From: a virus
UHGV virus genome: UHGV-0348126
Length of the DNA stretch: 35,770 nt
Reading direction: 5' to 3' (one strand)
The notes under the pieces were generated by a model. It made no database searches. It was given only the letters and a program-made list of their open reading frames with translations, and was not told where the DNA came from. Positions 1,909 through 9,637 of the stretch are shown piece by piece. Both the position numbers and the translations under genes were made by a program. How positions within the stretch are numbered: the stretch's first letter is position 1; every line of letters starts with the position of its first letter.

Positions 1909-2453
1909 GCCTCCATCGCTTTATCAGGTTTGTCGGTGTTACTGCCCTGACCGTTCTCTCTGTGACGATGCCCGTTATAGGCAAGCCGCATCGCTGACAT
2001 GGTGGTGCCGCTGGAGTCGCACAGGTCTTTCACTTGTCCTGTCACTTCCAGGTCCATTTCAAAACGTGCTTTAGGTGAATTGCGAAACGTGATCGTTTTA
2101 CCTGCACCGTCCACCACGATCCCCTCCCGGGTCAGCGTCACGGACTGCCCCTGATCGTCATAGACAGCCACCTCACCCGTCTGCAGCCCTTTCAGGCGGT
2201 AACGCCGATCCGACACCGTAACAACCACCGCATGAGAACGGTCGCCATCCGGAAACAACACCACCGCTTCCGCACCGCTGTTTGCCCTTGCGGTAAAACC
2301 GTAAGGTTCAAGATGTTCAACCCCGGCTTTGGGTTCACCGGCAATCAGGGACACATCCACGGTCTGACATTTCGTTGCGGCACTGATGCTTTTCACCACG
2401 GCCCGCCCAATCAGCCCGAGGAGTTGTCGCTGTATGGTTTCAATCGCCCTCAT
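1905..2453 (-). CDS. baseplate assembly protein V / spike (Mu gp45-like)
   Basis: 182-aa ORF; position and recalled similarity to phage baseplate assembly protein V; 1-nt overlap with upstream gene. Confidence 0.7.
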   Translation of the reverse strand: MRAIETIQRQLLGLIGRAVVKSISAATKCQTVDVSLIAGEPKAGVEHLEPYGFTARANSGAEAVVLFPDGDRSHAVVVTVSDRRYRLKGLQTGEVAVYDDQGQSVTLTREGIVVDGAGKTITFRNSPKARFEMDLEVTGQVKDLCDSSGTTMSAMRLAYNGHRHRENGQGSNTDKPDKAMEA

Positions 2454-3532
2454 CAGAACGGGTCCTCCTGTACTCTGGCTTTTTTCTTTTTCCGCGCGCC
2501 GGGATCTTCGGGTTCAGGCAGATAAGCATCAGGCGGGCCGACACGGATTTCCGTCAGGGTGCCGTTCTGGTCCTGAGTAAACGTGACTTCCGAAACAAGC
2601 AGTTCGGTATTGTCGAAACCACAGACCGGATCAAAGACAATCACCCGCTGGTTGGGCTGCCACAGCGTACCGTTACCCTGTCGCCAGCCCTGCACCACAT
2701 AGGTGGTTTCATCCGTCCGCGCCGCCCGTTGTCGGGCTTCAAAGTCAGCACGCGCAATACAGCCTGCCCCCGTGGCCTGCCCTGTCTGCCTGATATACAT
2801 CGGACGGTAACGGGCAATAAATGCGTCCTCTGTGCGGGCCCGCAGCGCGGTGGTGGTGGCCTCACCGAAATCATCGTCGTTTCCGGCACGCTGCCCCGCC
2901 ACCTGGTAAACTGAAAACCGCTCCCGGATACTCTTCTCCGTATCACAGGAAAGGATGTTTTCCCCAAGTACCAGCGCGGTATGTGCCCGCGTTGAGCCAA
3001 TACCGCCAATCACCAGCCTGCCGTGCGGGTCGTCGTAAGCCAGTGCCTGCTGCTGACCGAGTATTTTGTTGATTACCTCAATCACCGTTTCACCGTGATC
3101 AGGCTGGACGTCAGGAATAACACCCGACGGCGCACCGTTGTTCACCACCTCAATGCCGAAGGGCGCAGCAAGCGCCTGCGCAATCTGTACCAGCGATCGT
3201 CCGTTAAACTGTGTCGGTTCGGCTGCACAGTCAATCAGATCAGCGGTTAGACTGCGTCCGGCAATACCGGTGCTGACCGAACGGGCATCGTAACGAACGG
3301 GCGTCGCCTCCACCCAGCCGGTGATCACCAGCTCATCACCAATCAGCACTTCCACTTTTGAACCGTTTTTAATGCGCGGCTGAAGCGTGGTGATACCCTC
3401 ATCTCCCGGCCACTGGCGGGTGATCTCCACACTGAAATCCCGCGCCAGTCGTTCAACACCGGCACCGATGCGCACCGATGTCCAGCCATTCCACTCCCGG
3501 CCATTTACCCGTAGCGTGACGTTATCGTTCAT
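2453..3532 (-). CDS. tail protein, Mu gp44 (P) / P2 gpD-like baseplate hub
   Basis: 359-aa ORF directly downstream of the DNA circulation protein gene as in Mu; 4-nt overlap with upstream gene. Confidence 0.7.
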   Translation of the reverse strand: MNDNVTLRVNGREWNGWTSVRIGAGVERLARDFSVEITRQWPGDEGITTLQPRIKNGSKVEVLIGDELVITGWVEATPVRYDARSVSTGIAGRSLTADLIDCAAEPTQFNGRSLVQIAQALAAPFGIEVVNNGAPSGVIPDVQPDHGETVIEVINKILGQQQALAYDDPHGRLVIGGIGSTRAHTALVLGENILSCDTEKSIRERFSVYQVAGQRAGNDDDFGEATTTALRARTEDAFIARYRPMYIRQTGQATGAGCIARADFEARQRAARTDETTYVVQGWRQGNGTLWQPNQRVIVFDPVCGFDNTELLVSEVTFTQDQNGTLTEIRVGPPDAYLPEPEDPGARKKKKARVQEDPF

Positions 3533-4857
3533 TGCACTGGCACCTTTAGAGGGATCACCGGCACAAAGCCGGGATGCGTAATGGCATTACGCCGGATAAT
3601 GTCCGCGTCACGCGCCGCGTTATCAAACCAGGTCGCCGCCAGCACCAGCGCGGGTAAAACCTCATCCGGCGTGCGCTGAATGATCCGTGCAGACTGTTCA
3701 AGGCGCGTGTTGATATCCGCATTCAGATCTGCTTTCACCCGGCGCAGCGCCAGAAACAGCGCATCACTGGTTGTACGGGACAACTCCTTATCAATTGCCG
3801 TATTCAGTGTGTCGCGAATGTCAGTCAGTTCTTCCCACGTCGGCAGGTCAACTGTGTTTTTCACCGCCGGTGCATTGTTCAGTGCCGGATGCGTGACGGA
3901 AGGCCAGCCAGTGCTCTGCGCAGGTGTTGTTGCCTGCCCCACTGCGGAATTCTGCATCACCGCGGAAGTTGTTGGCGCAGGCAATCGGGTGACGGCATAC
4001 GCCGCTTCGCTGATTGCGGTCGTACGAAGGGTGCTGGCAACCACGTTACGCTGCTGCGTCGCCGTGGCGGTGGTTTTACTGTCCGTTTTCCAGACGCCGC
4101 GCGGTTGCAGATCGCTGCCGAGGCTGACACCGGAAAGCGTTTTGATCATGGTGACCAGGTCGCTGGCGTTACCATAAAGGCGTTTCCCGGTACGCCACAT
4201 TTTCTGCACCTGCTCAACGAAATTTTTGCCTGACGATGGCGGCGGCAGAAGTACCGAGATATCCCCCTGCAACAGCCTGGCGGCATCCGATACGGCAGAA
4301 TCCACCACTTTCATCGCATCAGAAACATACCCCAGCATTATGCTGGCATTACCGATAACGTCGTTCTGCACGAAATCCGCCACACCATCGATACTGAAAC
4401 CGCTGAAGCTGTCACTGATGCAGTCATCCAGTGCAGAACAGGATGACATCAGCGTCTGCGCCGTCGCCGCACCTGATGTGGGGTAAGAGAGTTCTCCTGC
4501 TTCGACAAACTTCAGGTCAAAGCGGACAATACGCCCTTCACTTTTCGATGTGCTGACCCGAACTTCCCCGTCAACACAGACTTTCAGCTCACCATATGTC
4601 GGGTGGACAAGCGTGCCGGGACCGGGTTTATTCAGCGCTTCAATCAGGCGATCGCGCTGGTCAAAGCAGTCATCTCCCACCACATAAGCTGTGATGGACG
4701 GGCGGAAAGTGACTTTTCCCAGATCTTCGGTATAGGGCTTGTCGCGGTTCGGATATTCGTGTGTTTCCACACGGCGACCGGTTCCCGCACTTTCTTCTTC
4801 AACCTTAAACGGTACGCCGCGAAATGACGCATCCTGAAGCCTGTCTTTCCACGTCAT
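3529..4857 (-). CDS. DNA circulation protein (Mu N / gp43-like)
   Basis: 442-aa ORF; N-terminus MTWKDRLQDASFRGVPFKVEEESAGTGRRVETHEYPNRDKPYTEDLGK recalled as typical of the DNA circulation N-terminal domain. Confidence 0.8.
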   Translation of the reverse strand: MTWKDRLQDASFRGVPFKVEEESAGTGRRVETHEYPNRDKPYTEDLGKVTFRPSITAYVVGDDCFDQRDRLIEALNKPGPGTLVHPTYGELKVCVDGEVRVSTSKSEGRIVRFDLKFVEAGELSYPTSGAATAQTLMSSCSALDDCISDSFSGFSIDGVADFVQNDVIGNASIMLGYVSDAMKVVDSAVSDAARLLQGDISVLLPPPSSGKNFVEQVQKMWRTGKRLYGNASDLVTMIKTLSGVSLGSDLQPRGVWKTDSKTTATATQQRNVVASTLRTTAISEAAYAVTRLPAPTTSAVMQNSAVGQATTPAQSTGWPSVTHPALNNAPAVKNTVDLPTWEELTDIRDTLNTAIDKELSRTTSDALFLALRRVKADLNADINTRLEQSARIIQRTPDEVLPALVLAATWFDNAARDADIIRRNAITHPGFVPVIPLKVPVQ

Positions 4858-4870
4858 ATAAACTCCGGAT

Positions 4871-4928
4871 ACAAAAAACCCGCCAAATCTGCTTTGTCAG
4901 TTATTTACATCGCAGAAGATGTGGCGGG
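4871..4928 (-). terminator. putative intrinsic terminator downstream of the AT-rich cargo gene
   Basis: On the minus strand CCCGCCACATCT ... AGATTTGGCGGG forms a long imperfect stem (1 mismatch) followed by TTTTTTGT; lies between the cargo gene stop (4948) and the next tail gene start (4857). Confidence 0.45.
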
Positions 4929-4947
4929 AACCTAATATTTTTAATTA

Positions 4948-5460
4948 CTATCTGAGTTGAACATCAATGGAATAAATATCACCACTCTTTATAAATTTAG
5001 AATCTGTCCTTTCATCAAAAGATTCAAATGACTGTACCTTTAAAAACTTTTTCATTTTATTTTCAAAAATACTTTCATTAACACCAGTTAAATACTTGAA
5101 CGCTCTACCAGCAAGGACCTCATTACTTAAATCCATTGTGTTTTTATTGTCTTTGAAAAACCAAACAATAACCTTTTGTGGGCATGATGGATTATAAACA
5201 GATATATAAAACTGCGGCTCATATTTTTCATCAGCGTCATCACTAAGCATTTCTTCAGAAGATAATTCTCTTCTGAATTCATATTGCCGCTTAGTTATTC
5301 CTTCATCCTTTATTATCTCTTGCTTAACTGGCGCAATACCTATAGAAGAGATTAATTCTGACTCATTAAAGCTGAACTTACACTCTTCCGCAGCCAAGTT
5401 AAAAGATAAAAGTGCAGATATAAAAAAAACAAAGATACGCATAATCATCCCTTCAATCAT
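4948..5460 (-). CDS. hypothetical secreted protein (moron) with N-terminal signal peptide
   Basis: 170-aa ORF in a visibly AT-rich island. Three in-frame ATGs (5460, 5448, 5442); GAAGGG lies 6 nt before the ATG at 5442, giving MRIFVFFISALLSFNLAAEE..., a classic signal peptide with an LAA cleavage motif. No recognisable family. Confidence 0.6.
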   Translation of the reverse strand: MIEGMIMRIFVFFISALLSFNLAAEECKFSFNESELISSIGIAPVKQEIIKDEGITKRQYEFRRELSSEEMLSDDADEKYEPQFYISVYNPSCPQKVIVWFFKDNKNTMDLSNEVLAGRAFKYLTGVNESIFENKMKKFLKVQSFESFDERTDSKFIKSGDIYSIDVQLR

Positions 5461-5541
5461 TTGTAAGGAATGATTATATTAACTACTTAAAGCTGAAAAC
5501 CCAAATTATGCCAGACAAAAACACATTAATCATTTTGTACA
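5461..5541 (-). promoter_or_regulatory. putative autonomous promoter of the cargo gene
   Basis: Minus strand carries a perfect TATAAT (plus 5473..5478) about 13 nt upstream of the first ATG, in an AT-rich 81-bp spacer between the tape measure stop and the cargo gene; the -35 is weak. Confidence 0.35.
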
Positions 5542-7374
5542 CTACCTGAACCGCGTATAGCCAACATCATGGCTGACATCAAAACCGCTGGATCGCGTTT
5601 CCATAACCCGCATACCCGGAGGCGAATTCACAAAAGATACCTTGATCTCACCATCAACTTTTGGCACAGAAGCTTTGTTAATCATGAAGGGATTCGAGCC
5701 TGTGGCATCGGAGGCGTTGTTTGACTGAGCCGGATCCACCGCCGGATAAGGTGTGTATCCCCGCGCCGGTATTCCCGTCCCATAAGCATCATAAGCACCC
5801 GCGCCCCACTGCGCAGAGTTAATGGCATCGACCGTGTCACCGGAACTGTCGGTAAACCACTCAATAATTGGCTTCAGCTTGTCCCACATATCCTGAAACC
5901 ACTTAACAACCGGCCCCCAGTTATTGATCACCATCCCCAGCGGCGACCAGGCAAAAACTTTCTTAAGGAGTTCCCAGCCAGCCTCAAAATAAGGACCAAT
6001 GGTTTCCCAGAGTTTCTTAAAATAAGGTCCGACAACATCCCAGTTAGTGATAATTAATCCCGCAGCCAGGGCTATCGCCGTCGCAATCATGCCAATCGGC
6101 GTCATCGACATGATCCTGCTGACAATACTGATGGCACCGCCAACGCCCATCAATCCCAGTTTCAGAATCGCAAGACCAGCAGCAAGCCCGACGACGCCGC
6201 GAATAACCCGGGGATTTTCATCCGCAAACTTCGTGAATTTCTCCCCCAACTCCCCCAGCCATTGCGTGATATTTTTAGCGTCACCAGAAAATGCGCCGCC
6301 AATAGCCGCAAGGCCGTTAGTTGCGGTCCCTGTCATTGCCTCCCACAGGTTGGACAGCGTACCAAGCTGTGCCTGAACACGTTTATTCAGGCTGGCCTGT
6401 TTATTCATCTTCTGCTGGATCTGATCGTAGCCATCCTTTCCTTTATCGATTAGTGCATTGACCACCTGAAGGGTTTCGGCATCATCACCAAATATTGCCT
6501 TAAGTACACCAGTTCGTTTAACGTCGGTCAGTTTTCGCAGCTTTGCCAGTTGCCTGAACATGTTATCAAGACCGCCAAAACTCCCTTTGCCGTCAGTAAA
6601 ATCGAGCTGTACCCCGAGTTTCTGGCGGGCCATAACTTTATTAACATCCCTGATTTTCTTAACGCTTAATCCGGACTGGATAACTTTTCGCAGGGCATTA
6701 CCTGCCGACTCCCCGTTCATCCCCATCTGATCCATCATGACGCTGATGGGGGCAAGGCTATGTGCAGCCTGAAGACCGTCCTTGTTCACCATCTTCAGAA
6801 CAGAACTGGTTTTAGTGAAGAAGGACAACATGTTGGTATCGTCAACGCCCAGATAAAACGCCTTCTGGATAGTGTCGAACAGCCCCATCATGTCTTCTGA
6901 CGCCGTTCCGGTAGCATCCTGCATCTTTGCAGCAAACTCAGCAGCCGCTTCCGGTGTTTTTTTCAGTTGTACCGCAAGATAAGCTGTCGCTTTACCCACA
7001 CCGCCAAGAATGTTTTCTGCCGGGATCCCCTGACGCACCAGCATCTGCATCATGTTCTGGAAATCAGCCGTTGTACCGGGTAGCTGGTTACCCAGGCCAA
7101 TAGCCAGTTTATTGATGTCCTGAAAGCTCTTTCCAACCTCGCCGTTCGCATCCATCATGGCGACTTTCAGCCCGGTGGCGGCGTTTTCCTGATCGGCATA
7201 AGATTTCAGGGAAAGCGTCAGACCCGCTGCCAGTCCGCCACCAAGCGCCAGCCCACCCTGTGACGCTTCTTCCGCCTGGCGTTTAAATCCCCGGATTTTC
7301 TTTTGCATTTTCGACAGCGCGGGAGAAAGCCTGTCGACACCGGTGATCAACGCCTTAAGCTCAAATTCAGCCAT
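5542..7374 (-). CDS. tail tape measure protein
   Basis: 610-aa ORF following the tail chaperone; Ala/Gly-rich with hydrophobic segments (GVVGLAAGLAILKLGLMGVGGAISIV) and a Trp-rich repeat region (WDVVGPYFKKLWETIGPYFEAGWELLKKVF) typical of tape measure proteins. Confidence 0.85.
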   Translation of the reverse strand: MAEFELKALITGVDRLSPALSKMQKKIRGFKRQAEEASQGGLALGGGLAAGLTLSLKSYADQENAATGLKVAMMDANGEVGKSFQDINKLAIGLGNQLPGTTADFQNMMQMLVRQGIPAENILGGVGKATAYLAVQLKKTPEAAAEFAAKMQDATGTASEDMMGLFDTIQKAFYLGVDDTNMLSFFTKTSSVLKMVNKDGLQAAHSLAPISVMMDQMGMNGESAGNALRKVIQSGLSVKKIRDVNKVMARQKLGVQLDFTDGKGSFGGLDNMFRQLAKLRKLTDVKRTGVLKAIFGDDAETLQVVNALIDKGKDGYDQIQQKMNKQASLNKRVQAQLGTLSNLWEAMTGTATNGLAAIGGAFSGDAKNITQWLGELGEKFTKFADENPRVIRGVVGLAAGLAILKLGLMGVGGAISIVSRIMSMTPIGMIATAIALAAGLIITNWDVVGPYFKKLWETIGPYFEAGWELLKKVFAWSPLGMVINNWGPVVKWFQDMWDKLKPIIEWFTDSSGDTVDAINSAQWGAGAYDAYGTGIPARGYTPYPAVDPAQSNNASDATGSNPFMINKASVPKVDGEIKVSFVNSPPGMRVMETRSSGFDVSHDVGYTRFR

Positions 7375-7785
7375 GTGTGCGTTTCTCCTGCTCTATCCTG
7401 TTTGCCTGACTGACCAGTAAGGGAATTTCACTGATCGGCATATTCAGCAATTCGAAAGGATTAATGCGCCAGTAACTGGCGCAGTCAAAGAAGCGATCAG
7501 TGAGGTATTCAGCCGTCAGGCCTGGAGGAAAAAACCAGCCACAAGCCACGCCGCTGCATTCAGGTCTGCCGGAGACATCTGGTCGACAGAGCTTTGCGGC
7601 ACTTTCGCCAGCCGCACAATGTATTTCGATACCACATGCGCCAGAAGTCTGACGGACTCATCCTGATTCATCTGGTAGGGATACCCCAGCTCGCGGACAT
7701 CTTTCCCGGTGGGCTCATCAAACTCCAGTACGGAGAGTGTCTCGCCATGAGCGGTAATCGGTTTCTTTAACTCAAGCTCTTTCAT
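7367..7785 (-). CDS. tail assembly chaperone, -1 frameshift fusion (GT-like) product
   Basis: Slippery heptamer T TTT TTC on the minus strand (plus 7528..7534) in the zero frame of the chaperone; the -1 frame continues FFPPGLTAEYLTDRFF... for about 55 more codons to a stop at 7367, overlapping the tape measure start (7374). Confidence 0.55.
7516..7785 (-). CDS. tail assembly chaperone, short (G-like) product
   Basis: 89-aa ORF between tail tube and tape measure; ends ...AGFFLQA* directly on a slippery site. Confidence 0.7.
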   Translation of the reverse strand: MKELELKKPITAHGETLSVLEFDEPTGKDVRELGYPYQMNQDESVRLLAHVVSKYIVRLAKVPQSSVDQMSPADLNAAAWLVAGFFLQA

Positions 7786-8141
7786 TACTGGTAATCCCCT
7801 TCTTCACCGTGGAACTCAAGATCAACCGTCCCTTCTTCGGCATTATGGTTTGCTTCGCCGTGCAGCCAGGCAGACGACAGTACATAGACCTGACCGTTCG
7901 CCAGCTCGGCTGTGATGGTCATCTCATCAGACGAGGTGATTTTGCTCACCGGAAAATTCTTCGGCACCTTGAAGGTCCCTTTAACATAAGGCGCACGGTG
8001 AGTTTCCTTGCGGTCCACTGAACCGTCCAGGCCGATGATGTCATCATTGACCGTCCTGTTCATGGGCACCTCAATGCCGCCGGTCAGCGATAGCTGCTGA
8101 CCGTCAATTTTGAAATAACAGGTTCCCCCGATACGGGCCAT
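7785..8141 (-). CDS. tail tube protein (Mu gp40-like)
   Basis: 118-aa ORF immediately downstream of the sheath gene with 1-nt overlap; size and position typical. Confidence 0.75.
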   Translation of the reverse strand: MARIGGTCYFKIDGQQLSLTGGIEVPMNRTVNDDIIGLDGSVDRKETHRAPYVKGTFKVPKNFPVSKITSSDEMTITAELANGQVYVLSSAWLHGEANHNAEEGTVDLEFHGEEGDYQ

Positions 8142-9637
8142 TATGCGGACTCCTCTGAATACTGAAGACGGAACTGGTTAACCACGGCAAAGACACGCAA
8201 CTGGTTAACATAGTCAGGCGGGAACAGCGTGTTCAGGCGGTTCGGATCGCTGGCATCACGCTCCACAACCAGGTACTGCTTAAAAAGTTCGTAGTTTTCC
8301 ACGATCCCCGCACGCTCAAGCTGACGGTAGGTTGCCAGCAGTTCCCCTTTGATCACCGCCGGGGTGACAATCGCCTGACCGGGACCAAAGCGGGTACCGT
8401 CGCTGGCAAGCTTGTGACGCCCGTACTTACTGGTAATGACGGATTTCAGTTTGCGCAGTACATACGCACTGGTATGCAGCGTCTCGCTGTCGAGGTAGCT
8501 GTTATCCGCAACCCCGTAAGCGTTTTTCCTGTACGTGGTGACATCACGCTGAATGCGCAGTACCCCGCTTTCGACATACGCCGTTGCCACGCCATGAGAC
8601 AGCAGGGTCTGTTGTTCGGTCATCGTGAACCGTTTCCCCTTCGGCGAAGGCAGCATACCCACCAGCTCACCGGTCTGCGTGGGACGTGCCGGATCGTTGC
8701 GGATAAACACCGCTGCGCGGGCGGTACGGCTTGCCGCCAGCTCGTCGGCAGGCGTCTGGGTCTCTTTTTCGTACCCCGCCAGGGTAATGTGCTGCTGGTT
8801 AAACTGGTCACCTGCGGTCACCAGTTCTGACAGCGTGCCGATCTTTGCCGTATACACATGACCATACAGCTGACGCGCATAGCTCCAGCGACCGCTGGTA
8901 TCGTTCATCTCGGTCACCAGCGTGTTAACGGAGGCCGTGTCGTTGAACGGCAGGCCGATATAATCAAACGGCTCATCCGCCATTGCAGCCACCGCGCCGG
9001 TGAGAACCGGAGCACCCGTTCCGGCGGTACCCGTCGCCACGGCAATCTGTACGCCCGCTGGCAGCACTTCGCCCCCACCAAAGCCGTAGTAATTGAGGCT
9101 GACAGGAATTTCATTCCCGCAAAGCCCCTTATGGCGAGCGGTCAATGTAACCACACCAGCCGAAGATGAGGCCGTAAACGGCAGGGCCGGAACGGCATTG
9201 ATGGCATCTTTGATACTGCTGGCAATCGTCGCGACGTTATCGCCGTTGGTCACCGGTGCCTGCACGCGGGTACGTCCCACATAAACATTCACCGTGCCGG
9301 TTTCGGTTGCTGCCCCGGTCACCGTCAGCGTAACTGTTGCCGCCGCGCCTGTGGATTCAGGAACGGCAATCACATACAGCTCGCCAAACGGGTCAGTCTG
9401 GCGATAAGCCTCGACCATACGCGCCAGCTGACTTCCCGCACCACAAATCTGGCGTGCATAGTCTGCCGACGGCATCAGTACCAGACTGTTGGCAACAATC
9501 TCTGCACCGTTATTGGCATGACCAATCAGCAGCGATGCTCCGCTGTCCTGTGCAGTATTCGCCGCCTGGTTATCCATTTCCGCATAAAACAACGGAACCA
9601 GCGTATTCGACGGAATGGTGTTAAAGCTTATCGTCAT
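8141..9637 (-). CDS. contractile tail sheath protein (Mu L / gp39-like)
   Basis: 498-aa ORF; size, position upstream of the tube gene and recalled sheath-family resemblance. Confidence 0.85.
   Translation of the reverse strand: MTISFNTIPSNTLVPLFYAEMDNQAANTAQDSGASLLIGHANNGAEIVANSLVLMPSADYARQICGAGSQLARMVEAYRQTDPFGELYVIAVPESTGAAATVTLTVTGAATETGTVNVYVGRTRVQAPVTNGDNVATIASSIKDAINAVPALPFTASSSAGVVTLTARHKGLCGNEIPVSLNYYGFGGGEVLPAGVQIAVATGTAGTGAPVLTGAVAAMADEPFDYIGLPFNDTASVNTLVTEMNDTSGRWSYARQLYGHVYTAKIGTLSELVTAGDQFNQQHITLAGYEKETQTPADELAASRTARAAVFIRNDPARPTQTGELVGMLPSPKGKRFTMTEQQTLLSHGVATAYVESGVLRIQRDVTTYRKNAYGVADNSYLDSETLHTSAYVLRKLKSVITSKYGRHKLASDGTRFGPGQAIVTPAVIKGELLATYRQLERAGIVENYELFKQYLVVERDASDPNRLNTLFPPDYVNQLRVFAVVNQFRLQYSEESA

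Follow-up and report, generated by a model that had tools for sequence, protein, structure and literature searches.

The G/GT class of tail assembly chaperone frameshifts is reportedly to be traced to work of Xu, Hendrix and Duda in 2004, and the described systems closest to the locus analysed here are those of phages P2, lambda and Mu. The P2 record gives E as 91 aa and E+E′ as 142 aa, the latter as a joined CDS with a site marked as a "-1 translational frameshift", and annotates both as essential tail proteins; the site itself, GTC GGT TTT TTG (T_TTT_TTG), belongs to the FETUD tail operon. There is no downstream hairpin at the P2 frameshift (PMC3091744), and P2 and related phages are reported to shift at a level 2- to 3-fold above that of lambda (PMC5009743). 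In lambda, the tape measure protein (gpH) binds both G and the G portion of GT, and the major tail protein gpV binds T; the ratio of G to GT is critical, and neither protein is found in the virion (PMC5009743). The chaperone shift of Mu is a -2 shift (PMC2628397; PMC5009743).

We examined a tail module in a 35,770-nucleotide stretch of viral DNA (the window). A 551-nt query spanning the chaperone genes identifies it as an SfV/SfI-like E. coli prophage, with 99.8% identity to SfI and 98.5% to SfV. The same locus was found in 1063 of 5426 complete E. coli genomes (~20%) and in the serotype-converting Shigella phages SfV, SfI and SfII. Its features are as follows.

9637..8141, minus strand: sheath gene (Pfam)
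7785..8141, minus strand: tail tube gene, 118 aa (PF10618 Tail_tube, E=2e-33)
7516..7785, minus strand: zero-frame tail assembly chaperone, equivalent of G and of P2 E, 89 aa (PF10109 Phage_TAC_7)
7547..7549, minus strand: GTG opening a mechanical 60-aa ORF, 7367..7549 (ORF call)
7528..7534, minus strand: slippery heptamer T_TTT_TTC, in codons GGT TTT TTC for G84 F85 F86
7367..7528, minus strand: -1 frame extension, equivalent of T and E′, 53 codons PPGLTAEYL...EQEKRTHG plus TGA 7369..7367 (PHROG 32181)
7465..7483, minus strand: 8-bp hairpin or palindrome UGCGCCAG-UUA-CUGGCGCA, in the T codons for C-A-S-Y-W-R
5542..7374, minus strand: tape measure gene, 610 aa (PF10145, E=3e-26)
4857..3529, minus strand: DNA_circ_N gene (Pfam)
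3532..2453, minus strand: Mu GpP-type baseplate hub gene (Pfam)

Along the minus strand, the tube gene (8141..7785) is followed by G (7785..7516), the -1 ORF running to 7367 and the tape measure gene (7374..5542). The TAA stop of the tube gene shares bases with the chaperone ATG (TAATG). The chaperone aligns to PF10109, named "Phage tail assembly chaperone proteins, E, or 41 or 14", over residues 4-86, corresponding to model positions 2-78 of 79 (E=2e-16; 60.3 bits, with a cut-off of 25); it also matches PHROG 166, a tail protein, and carries the RefSeq label "phage tail assembly protein". Its 89 residues, encoded by 7785..7516, end in AWLVAGFFLQA*. The first T of the heptamer TTTTTTC (7534..7528) is the wobble base of GGT, which places the motif in the X_XXY_YYZ register, and the zero-frame TGA (7518..7516) lies 9 nt after it. 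Read in the -1 frame from the heptamer, the sequence gives W FF, then PPGLTAEYLTDRFFDCASYWRINPFELLNMPISEIPLLVSQANRIEQEKRTHG, ending in RTHG at TGA 7369..7367. This extension matches PHROG 32181, a family of unknown function, at E=4e-40. The earlier note had described an 89-codon chaperone ORF ending GFFLQA* with an in-frame heptamer near its stop, and a -1 frame open from there to 7367 that overlaps the start of the tape measure gene; all of these coordinates are confirmed, with the tape measure ATG at 7374..7372. This ATG overlaps the stop of the -1 ORF (ATGGCTGA), and a putative SD for the tape measure gene, AGGAG at 7389..7385, lies within the T coding sequence.

The predicted fusion would comprise 139 aa, namely zero-frame residues 1-86 followed by 53 residues from the -1 frame. 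C7528 would be read twice; the predicted sequence around the shift is AGFF|PPGL, with the junction peptide ...AAWLVAGFFPPGLTAEYLTDR and the tryptic peptide VPQSSVDQMSPADLNAAAWLVAGFFPPGLTAEYLTDR.

Elsewhere in the module, an AT-rich island (4860-5540; 31-36% GC against ~52-55% around it) separates the tape measure gene from the DNA-circulation gene. It holds an ORF (5460..4948, minus strand) of 170 aa with a hydrophobic, signal-like N-terminus, which has no Pfam match and matches PHROG 8976, of unknown function, at E=3e-107. The island with its ORF has the look of a moron that entered the tail module.

The closest parallel to the chaperone genes is P2. The P2 chaperone also matches PF10109, at 47.8 bits for E compared with 60.3 bits in the window, and hmmscan places both P2 E residues 7-85 and window residues 4-86 on model positions 2-78 of 79. 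Both heptamers have their last codon at model position 78 of 79, and the window site is therefore positionally homologous to that of P2. Both encode the motif (V/A)-G-F-(L/F) as GGT TTT TTN, and the products are of similar size (89 and 139 aa in the window, 91 and 142 aa in P2). The -1 ORF also has its stop codon in the same place, starting 5 nt after the tape measure ATG (that of the T gene in P2); both phages have contractile tails, and no downstream structure is known for either. The last base of the heptamer differs, being C in the window (T in some relatives) and G in P2. The C-terminal domain resembles that of P2 only weakly. PF06528 (Phage_P2_GpE), which P2 E+E′ matches at 1e-21, is matched by 0 of 20 T-domain sequences at E<=10, and hhalign alignments between T and P2-type E′ are collinear but not significant (E=0.002-0.003, probability 10-15%). 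The window is thus P2-like in mechanism and in its G domain, whereas its T domain is different or highly diverged. The tail module is otherwise Mu-like, unlike that of P2. By sequence, no solved structure was found for G and only spurious designed proteins for T, and an AlphaFold model of the fusion from the single sequence was unusable (pLDDT 46.5).

The lambda gpG/gpGT pair, with its -1 shift at G_GGA_AAG, occupies the same position between the major tail (tube) and tape measure genes and follows the same logic, in which the short form is abundant, the C-terminally extended one is rare, their ratio is fixed and the extension lacks its own start (PMC5009743). However, no sequence similarity between the lambda and window proteins is detectable, the heptamers differ and the lambda tail is non-contractile. 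The domain functions were demonstrated in lambda, and we infer those of the window from lambda. With Mu, the window shares the type of module: a sheath like gpL, a tube of PF10618 (the family given in RefSeq for Mup40), DNA_circ_N (the domain given there for Mup43) and GpP. The chaperones differ. Mu gp41, of 144 aa, matches PF23746 (Gp41_Mu) at 9e-35 and PF10109 only marginally (24.7 bits against the cut-off of 25), whereas in Pfam the window chaperone matches PF10109 and has no match to PF23746. The Mu extension lies in the +1/-2 frame at a G-rich site; in the window, that frame closes 7 nt beyond the G stop. The earlier note had seen the conserved G/GT arrangement in a Mu-like tail module. 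The module is indeed Mu-like, but this part of the comparison does not carry over to the frameshift, since Mu uses a -2 shift and PF23746 and the window site is homologous to that of P2. The locus thus combines a tail module of the Mu type, a chaperone frameshift of the P2 type and a T-domain family of its own.

A heptamer in one sequence does not go beyond chance, and a comparative test is needed: among its ORFs of at least 80 aa, the window has 61 X_XXY_YYZ heptamers in register, several of them with long -1 extensions. We used the 53-residue extension as a tblastn query; phage matches sit between chaperone and tape measure genes, with identities of 74% in EPP-1, 55% in AH07 and 35-44% in ST64B, SfIV, phiP27 and YeP1. 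The comparison set comprised 8 phage loci and 33 loci from one-genome-per-species contigs, reduced to 32 by dropping L043 (Rivibacter), a false positive that proved to be a secretion ATPase. After removal of redundancy, 36 unique loci remained, spanning the Enterobacterales and Derxia, with G identity down to 27-40%.

T_TTT_TT(C/T) is present in register, at the same (G/N/R/S)-F-F motif, in 8 of 8 phage loci and 32 of 32 genome loci, and in every one of them the -1 ORF is open for 50-59 codons from the heptamer. In 31 of the 32 genome loci this ORF ends between -4 and +11 nt from the tape measure start, and the phage loci are comparable; in the exception, L023, an upstream in-frame codon has probably been called wrongly as the tape measure start. 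The position of the zero-frame stop varies among relatives, at 9, 24, 27, 42 or 60-78 nt past the heptamer. In relatives of the ST64B/SfIV/phiP27 type (L006-L009, L031-L042), the zero frame runs for 20-26 Ser/Glu/Gly/Thr-rich codons past the slip site, and this overlap region holds many complementary segments of the GGAG/CTCC type 10-40 nt past the heptamer.

Codon usage at the site is similarly restricted. In the 36 unique loci, Phe-Phe is preceded by GGT in 28, AAT in 4, CGT in 3 and AGT in 1, a codon that always ends in T, and TTT encodes the first Phe in every one; one codon further upstream, GCC, GCA, GCT and GCG are all used freely. For the wobble positions we analysed 16 unique sequences of the 89-aa subgroup (59-99% nt identity), in which all 7 heptamer bases are invariant, compared with 5 of 83 upstream third positions. 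Mean column entropy per codon phase is 0.38, 0.25 and 1.23 in the G part and 0.31, 0.94 and 0.52 after the heptamer, with the maximum in phase 2 up to the heptamer and in phase 1 beyond it. Synonymous variation thus moves from frame 0 to frame -1 exactly there, as is characteristic of a protein translated across a -1 shift; the -1 ORF is protein-coding and under purifying selection at the protein level. Judged by the aligned sequences, conservation is decisive in putting the heptamer site far beyond chance.

The IMG/VR scan gave only near-identical copies and was therefore used solely as a population check. TTTTTTC is kept in 77 of 80 of these prophage copies. The other three (L064, L095 and L101) have GGG for GGT at the equivalent of 7534, giving G_TTT_TTC in two and G_TTT_TTT in one; in these variants the A-site tetramer is intact and P-site re-pairing is weakened, and the three copies may be decaying prophages.

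These observations bear directly on the explanations that compete with a programmed ribosomal frameshift. If the heptamer merely encoded Gly-Phe-Phe, the -1 frame would be fortuitous or a relict and the fusion irrelevant, a reading that could draw on the number of in-register heptamers in the window, on the weakness of the bare motif in reporters and on the loss of the first T in three prophage copies. It is nevertheless highly improbable, given that the synonymous positions of the heptamer are invariant, that the wobble phase switches at the heptamer, that the -1 ORF protein is conserved down to 35% identity and that its end point at the tape measure start is conserved across the 36 unique loci. 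An independent small gene, read as the 60-aa ORF 7549..7367 from the GTG, is how the sequence appears in vB_EcoM-689R6 and some E. coli records (as a "hypothetical protein"), in PHROG 32181 and in stand-alone calls of 53-64 aa in protein databases. We give this reading almost no weight. Judged from its surroundings, the GTG at 7547..7549 is not a credible independent start, having no SD upstream; in 26 of the 36 unique relatives the -1 frame contains none of the codons ATG, GTG and TTG ahead of the heptamer, and an SD-like motif for the -1 ORF occurs in 0 of 36. Independent initiation is therefore no general route to the -1 ORF. Internal ATG or GTG codons are not conserved, and starting at them would remove the conserved N-terminal half, while an independent gene would leave the invariant heptamer and the fixed register unexplained. 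An exhaustive phmmer search with the extension against 1.84 billion representatives returned 10 matches, 3 of which are repeat-protein artefacts; the genuine ones are stand-alone calls of 53-64 aa beginning just before FF, and no natural in-frame G-T fusion is among them, as is expected if both forms are needed. Six candidate fusions (P0001-P0006) were rejected as assembly errors, since they come from singleton contigs with indels at differing places.

Slippage could also occur during transcription, with RNA polymerase adding an extra U in the U6 run and standard translation then giving the same 139-aa fusion. The site is a homopolymer, T6 in the window and T7 in ST64B-type relatives, and selection for T at heptamer position 1 would lengthen the run as well. 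A transcript with one extra nucleotide encodes an identical protein, so sequence analysis cannot separate ribosomal from transcriptional slippage. However, efficient slippage by bacterial RNA polymerase has been reported at runs of ~9 A/T, and shorter motifs such as T5C5 depend on a nascent hairpin directly 5′ of them (PMC5009743). Here the run has 6 nt, no hairpin abuts it in the upstream 60 nt and the wobble positions there vary; in addition, the homologous P2 site is annotated as -1 translational and has been described as a translational frameshift (PMC3091744). We consider transcriptional slippage very unlikely.

Together, our results argue strongly for a programmed -1 ribosomal frameshift of the G/GT (P2 E/E+E′) type, which we regard as highly probable. 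Two overlapping ORFs lie between the tube and tape measure genes, an in-register slippery sequence falls within the ORF overlap in 36 of 36 unique relatives, and the downstream ORF is coding but has no translation start of its own. The earlier note's central claim of such a frameshift is borne out in every computational expectation, from gene position, the PF10109 match and the heptamer to the coding -1 ORF and the absence of a start. Expression of the fusion, the ribosomal nature of the slippage, its efficiency and the binding partners of both domains are inferred.

In the model that we favour, most ribosomes starting at ATG 7785 would stop at TGA 7518..7516 and yield the 89-aa chaperone. In a minority, with tRNA-Phe on UUU in the P site and on UUC in the A site of U_UUU_UUC, both tRNAs would slip back one base onto UUU_UUU. 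The next codon would then be CCU, and 53 codons would be read to TGA 7369..7367. The resulting 139-aa product would have its first 86 residues in common with the short form, followed by a C-terminal domain of its own. On the analogy of the lambda gpG/gpGT and P2 gpE/gpE+E′ pairs, the shared N-terminal domain would coat the tape measure protein and the extension would recruit the tail tube protein. A fixed slip frequency would set the ratio of the short to the long form, and by the same analogy neither form would be present in the virion.

How such a site would reach a useful level of frameshifting is less obvious. The motif U_UUU_UUY falls in the class H_HH.U_UU.Y, which is listed as one of the most efficient for -1 shifts in E. 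coli (PMC4066793). In reporters, UUUUUUC gave 0.12% frameshifting when no stimulator was present, 0.89% when combined with that of IS911 and 7.6% when combined with the IS3 pseudoknot; the corresponding values were 0.33%, 0.45% and 10.2% for UUUUUUU and 0.12%, 0.25% and 0.77% for the UUUUUUG of P2 (PMC4066793 supplement). With 0.12% for bare UUUUUUC, a useful level of fusion would need a further context effect, and the same puzzle exists in P2. The earlier note had proposed RNA folding as a check for a downstream stimulatory structure; at the usual spacing of 5-9 nt there is none. Folds of the first 30-95 nt after the heptamer are unremarkable (z -1.3 to +1.0), the 5-40 nt region has z ~0, and an Rfam search returned nothing relevant. 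Only a 100-nt fold reaches z=-2.45, through a 10-bp repeat pairing 7503..7494 with 7437..7428. The repeat is perfect and inverted, TCACTGATCG / CGATCAGTGA (7494-7503 and 7428-7437, minus strand), begins 24 nt past the heptamer and flanks the 8-bp hairpin; EPP-1, AH07 and L021-L023 do not conserve it, and it is therefore probably incidental. Upstream, no conserved SD-like stimulator was found, and the wobble positions vary freely.

The DNA form of the hairpin at 7465-7483 is TGCGCCAG-TTA-CTGGCGCA, a perfect palindrome that lies 44 nt 3′ of the heptamer. In 15 of 16 unique close relatives the stem does not vary, even at the wobble bases of TGC, GCC, TAC and CGC; all substitutions within the hairpin fall in the loop, and the neighbouring Phe, Asp, Ile and Pro codons vary. 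The stem is also intact in L029 and L030, and 7 of its 8 pairs are kept in L024. Relatives of the ST64B/SfIV/phiP27 type lack the hairpin yet have the frameshift anatomy, so the hairpin is not required for the signal. At 44 nt, it lies farther off than a canonical stimulator could, and it probably does not belong to the shift signal. The low level of ~0.1% for the bare heptamer, with no canonical stimulator adjoining, means that an unconventional element may set the level, for which the candidate would be this hairpin, written as UGCGCCAG-NNN-CUGGCGCA at 7483..7465. Such a hairpin could pause a leading ribosome and so cause the following one to dwell near the slippery site. We think it unlikely that the level is set in this way; alternatively, the hairpin could tune translation or stability of the tape measure message. 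The palindrome was also considered as a repeated operator and rejected, since it occurs in a single copy in the window.

The frameshift is missing from current annotation. None of the RefSeq and GenBank records that we examined annotates slippage at this locus. RefSeq/PGAP and the GenBank records of SfV and SfI give only the 89-aa protein and leave the 141 nt before the tape measure gene blank (7370-7515 in the window; 1836-1976 in L001), and the record of phage vB_EcoM-689R6 enters the -1 ORF as a separate protein. In NCBI records of P2-type prophages, the -1 ORF is entered as a protein in its own right, a "GpE family phage tail protein", and the fusion is unrepresented there as well. Our search, which did not include Xu et al. 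2004, found no paper naming the frameshift in SfV, SfI, SfII or ST64B, and this cluster is missing from the list in the E. coli-wide heptamer screen by Sharma et al.

In summary, our results support the view that the site is an ordinary, unannotated member of the conserved class of tail-chaperone frameshifts. The mechanism is a textbook one, and the gain is therefore mostly in annotation: the 139-aa fusion is probably essential for tail assembly, which would mean that a required virion-assembly protein is missing from annotated proteomes. In addition, the family offers a natural series, with T_TTT_TTC and T_TTT_TTT variants, a variable distance to the zero-frame stop and a downstream hairpin that is present or absent, for understanding how a weak heptamer reaches a useful level of shifting without a nearby structure.
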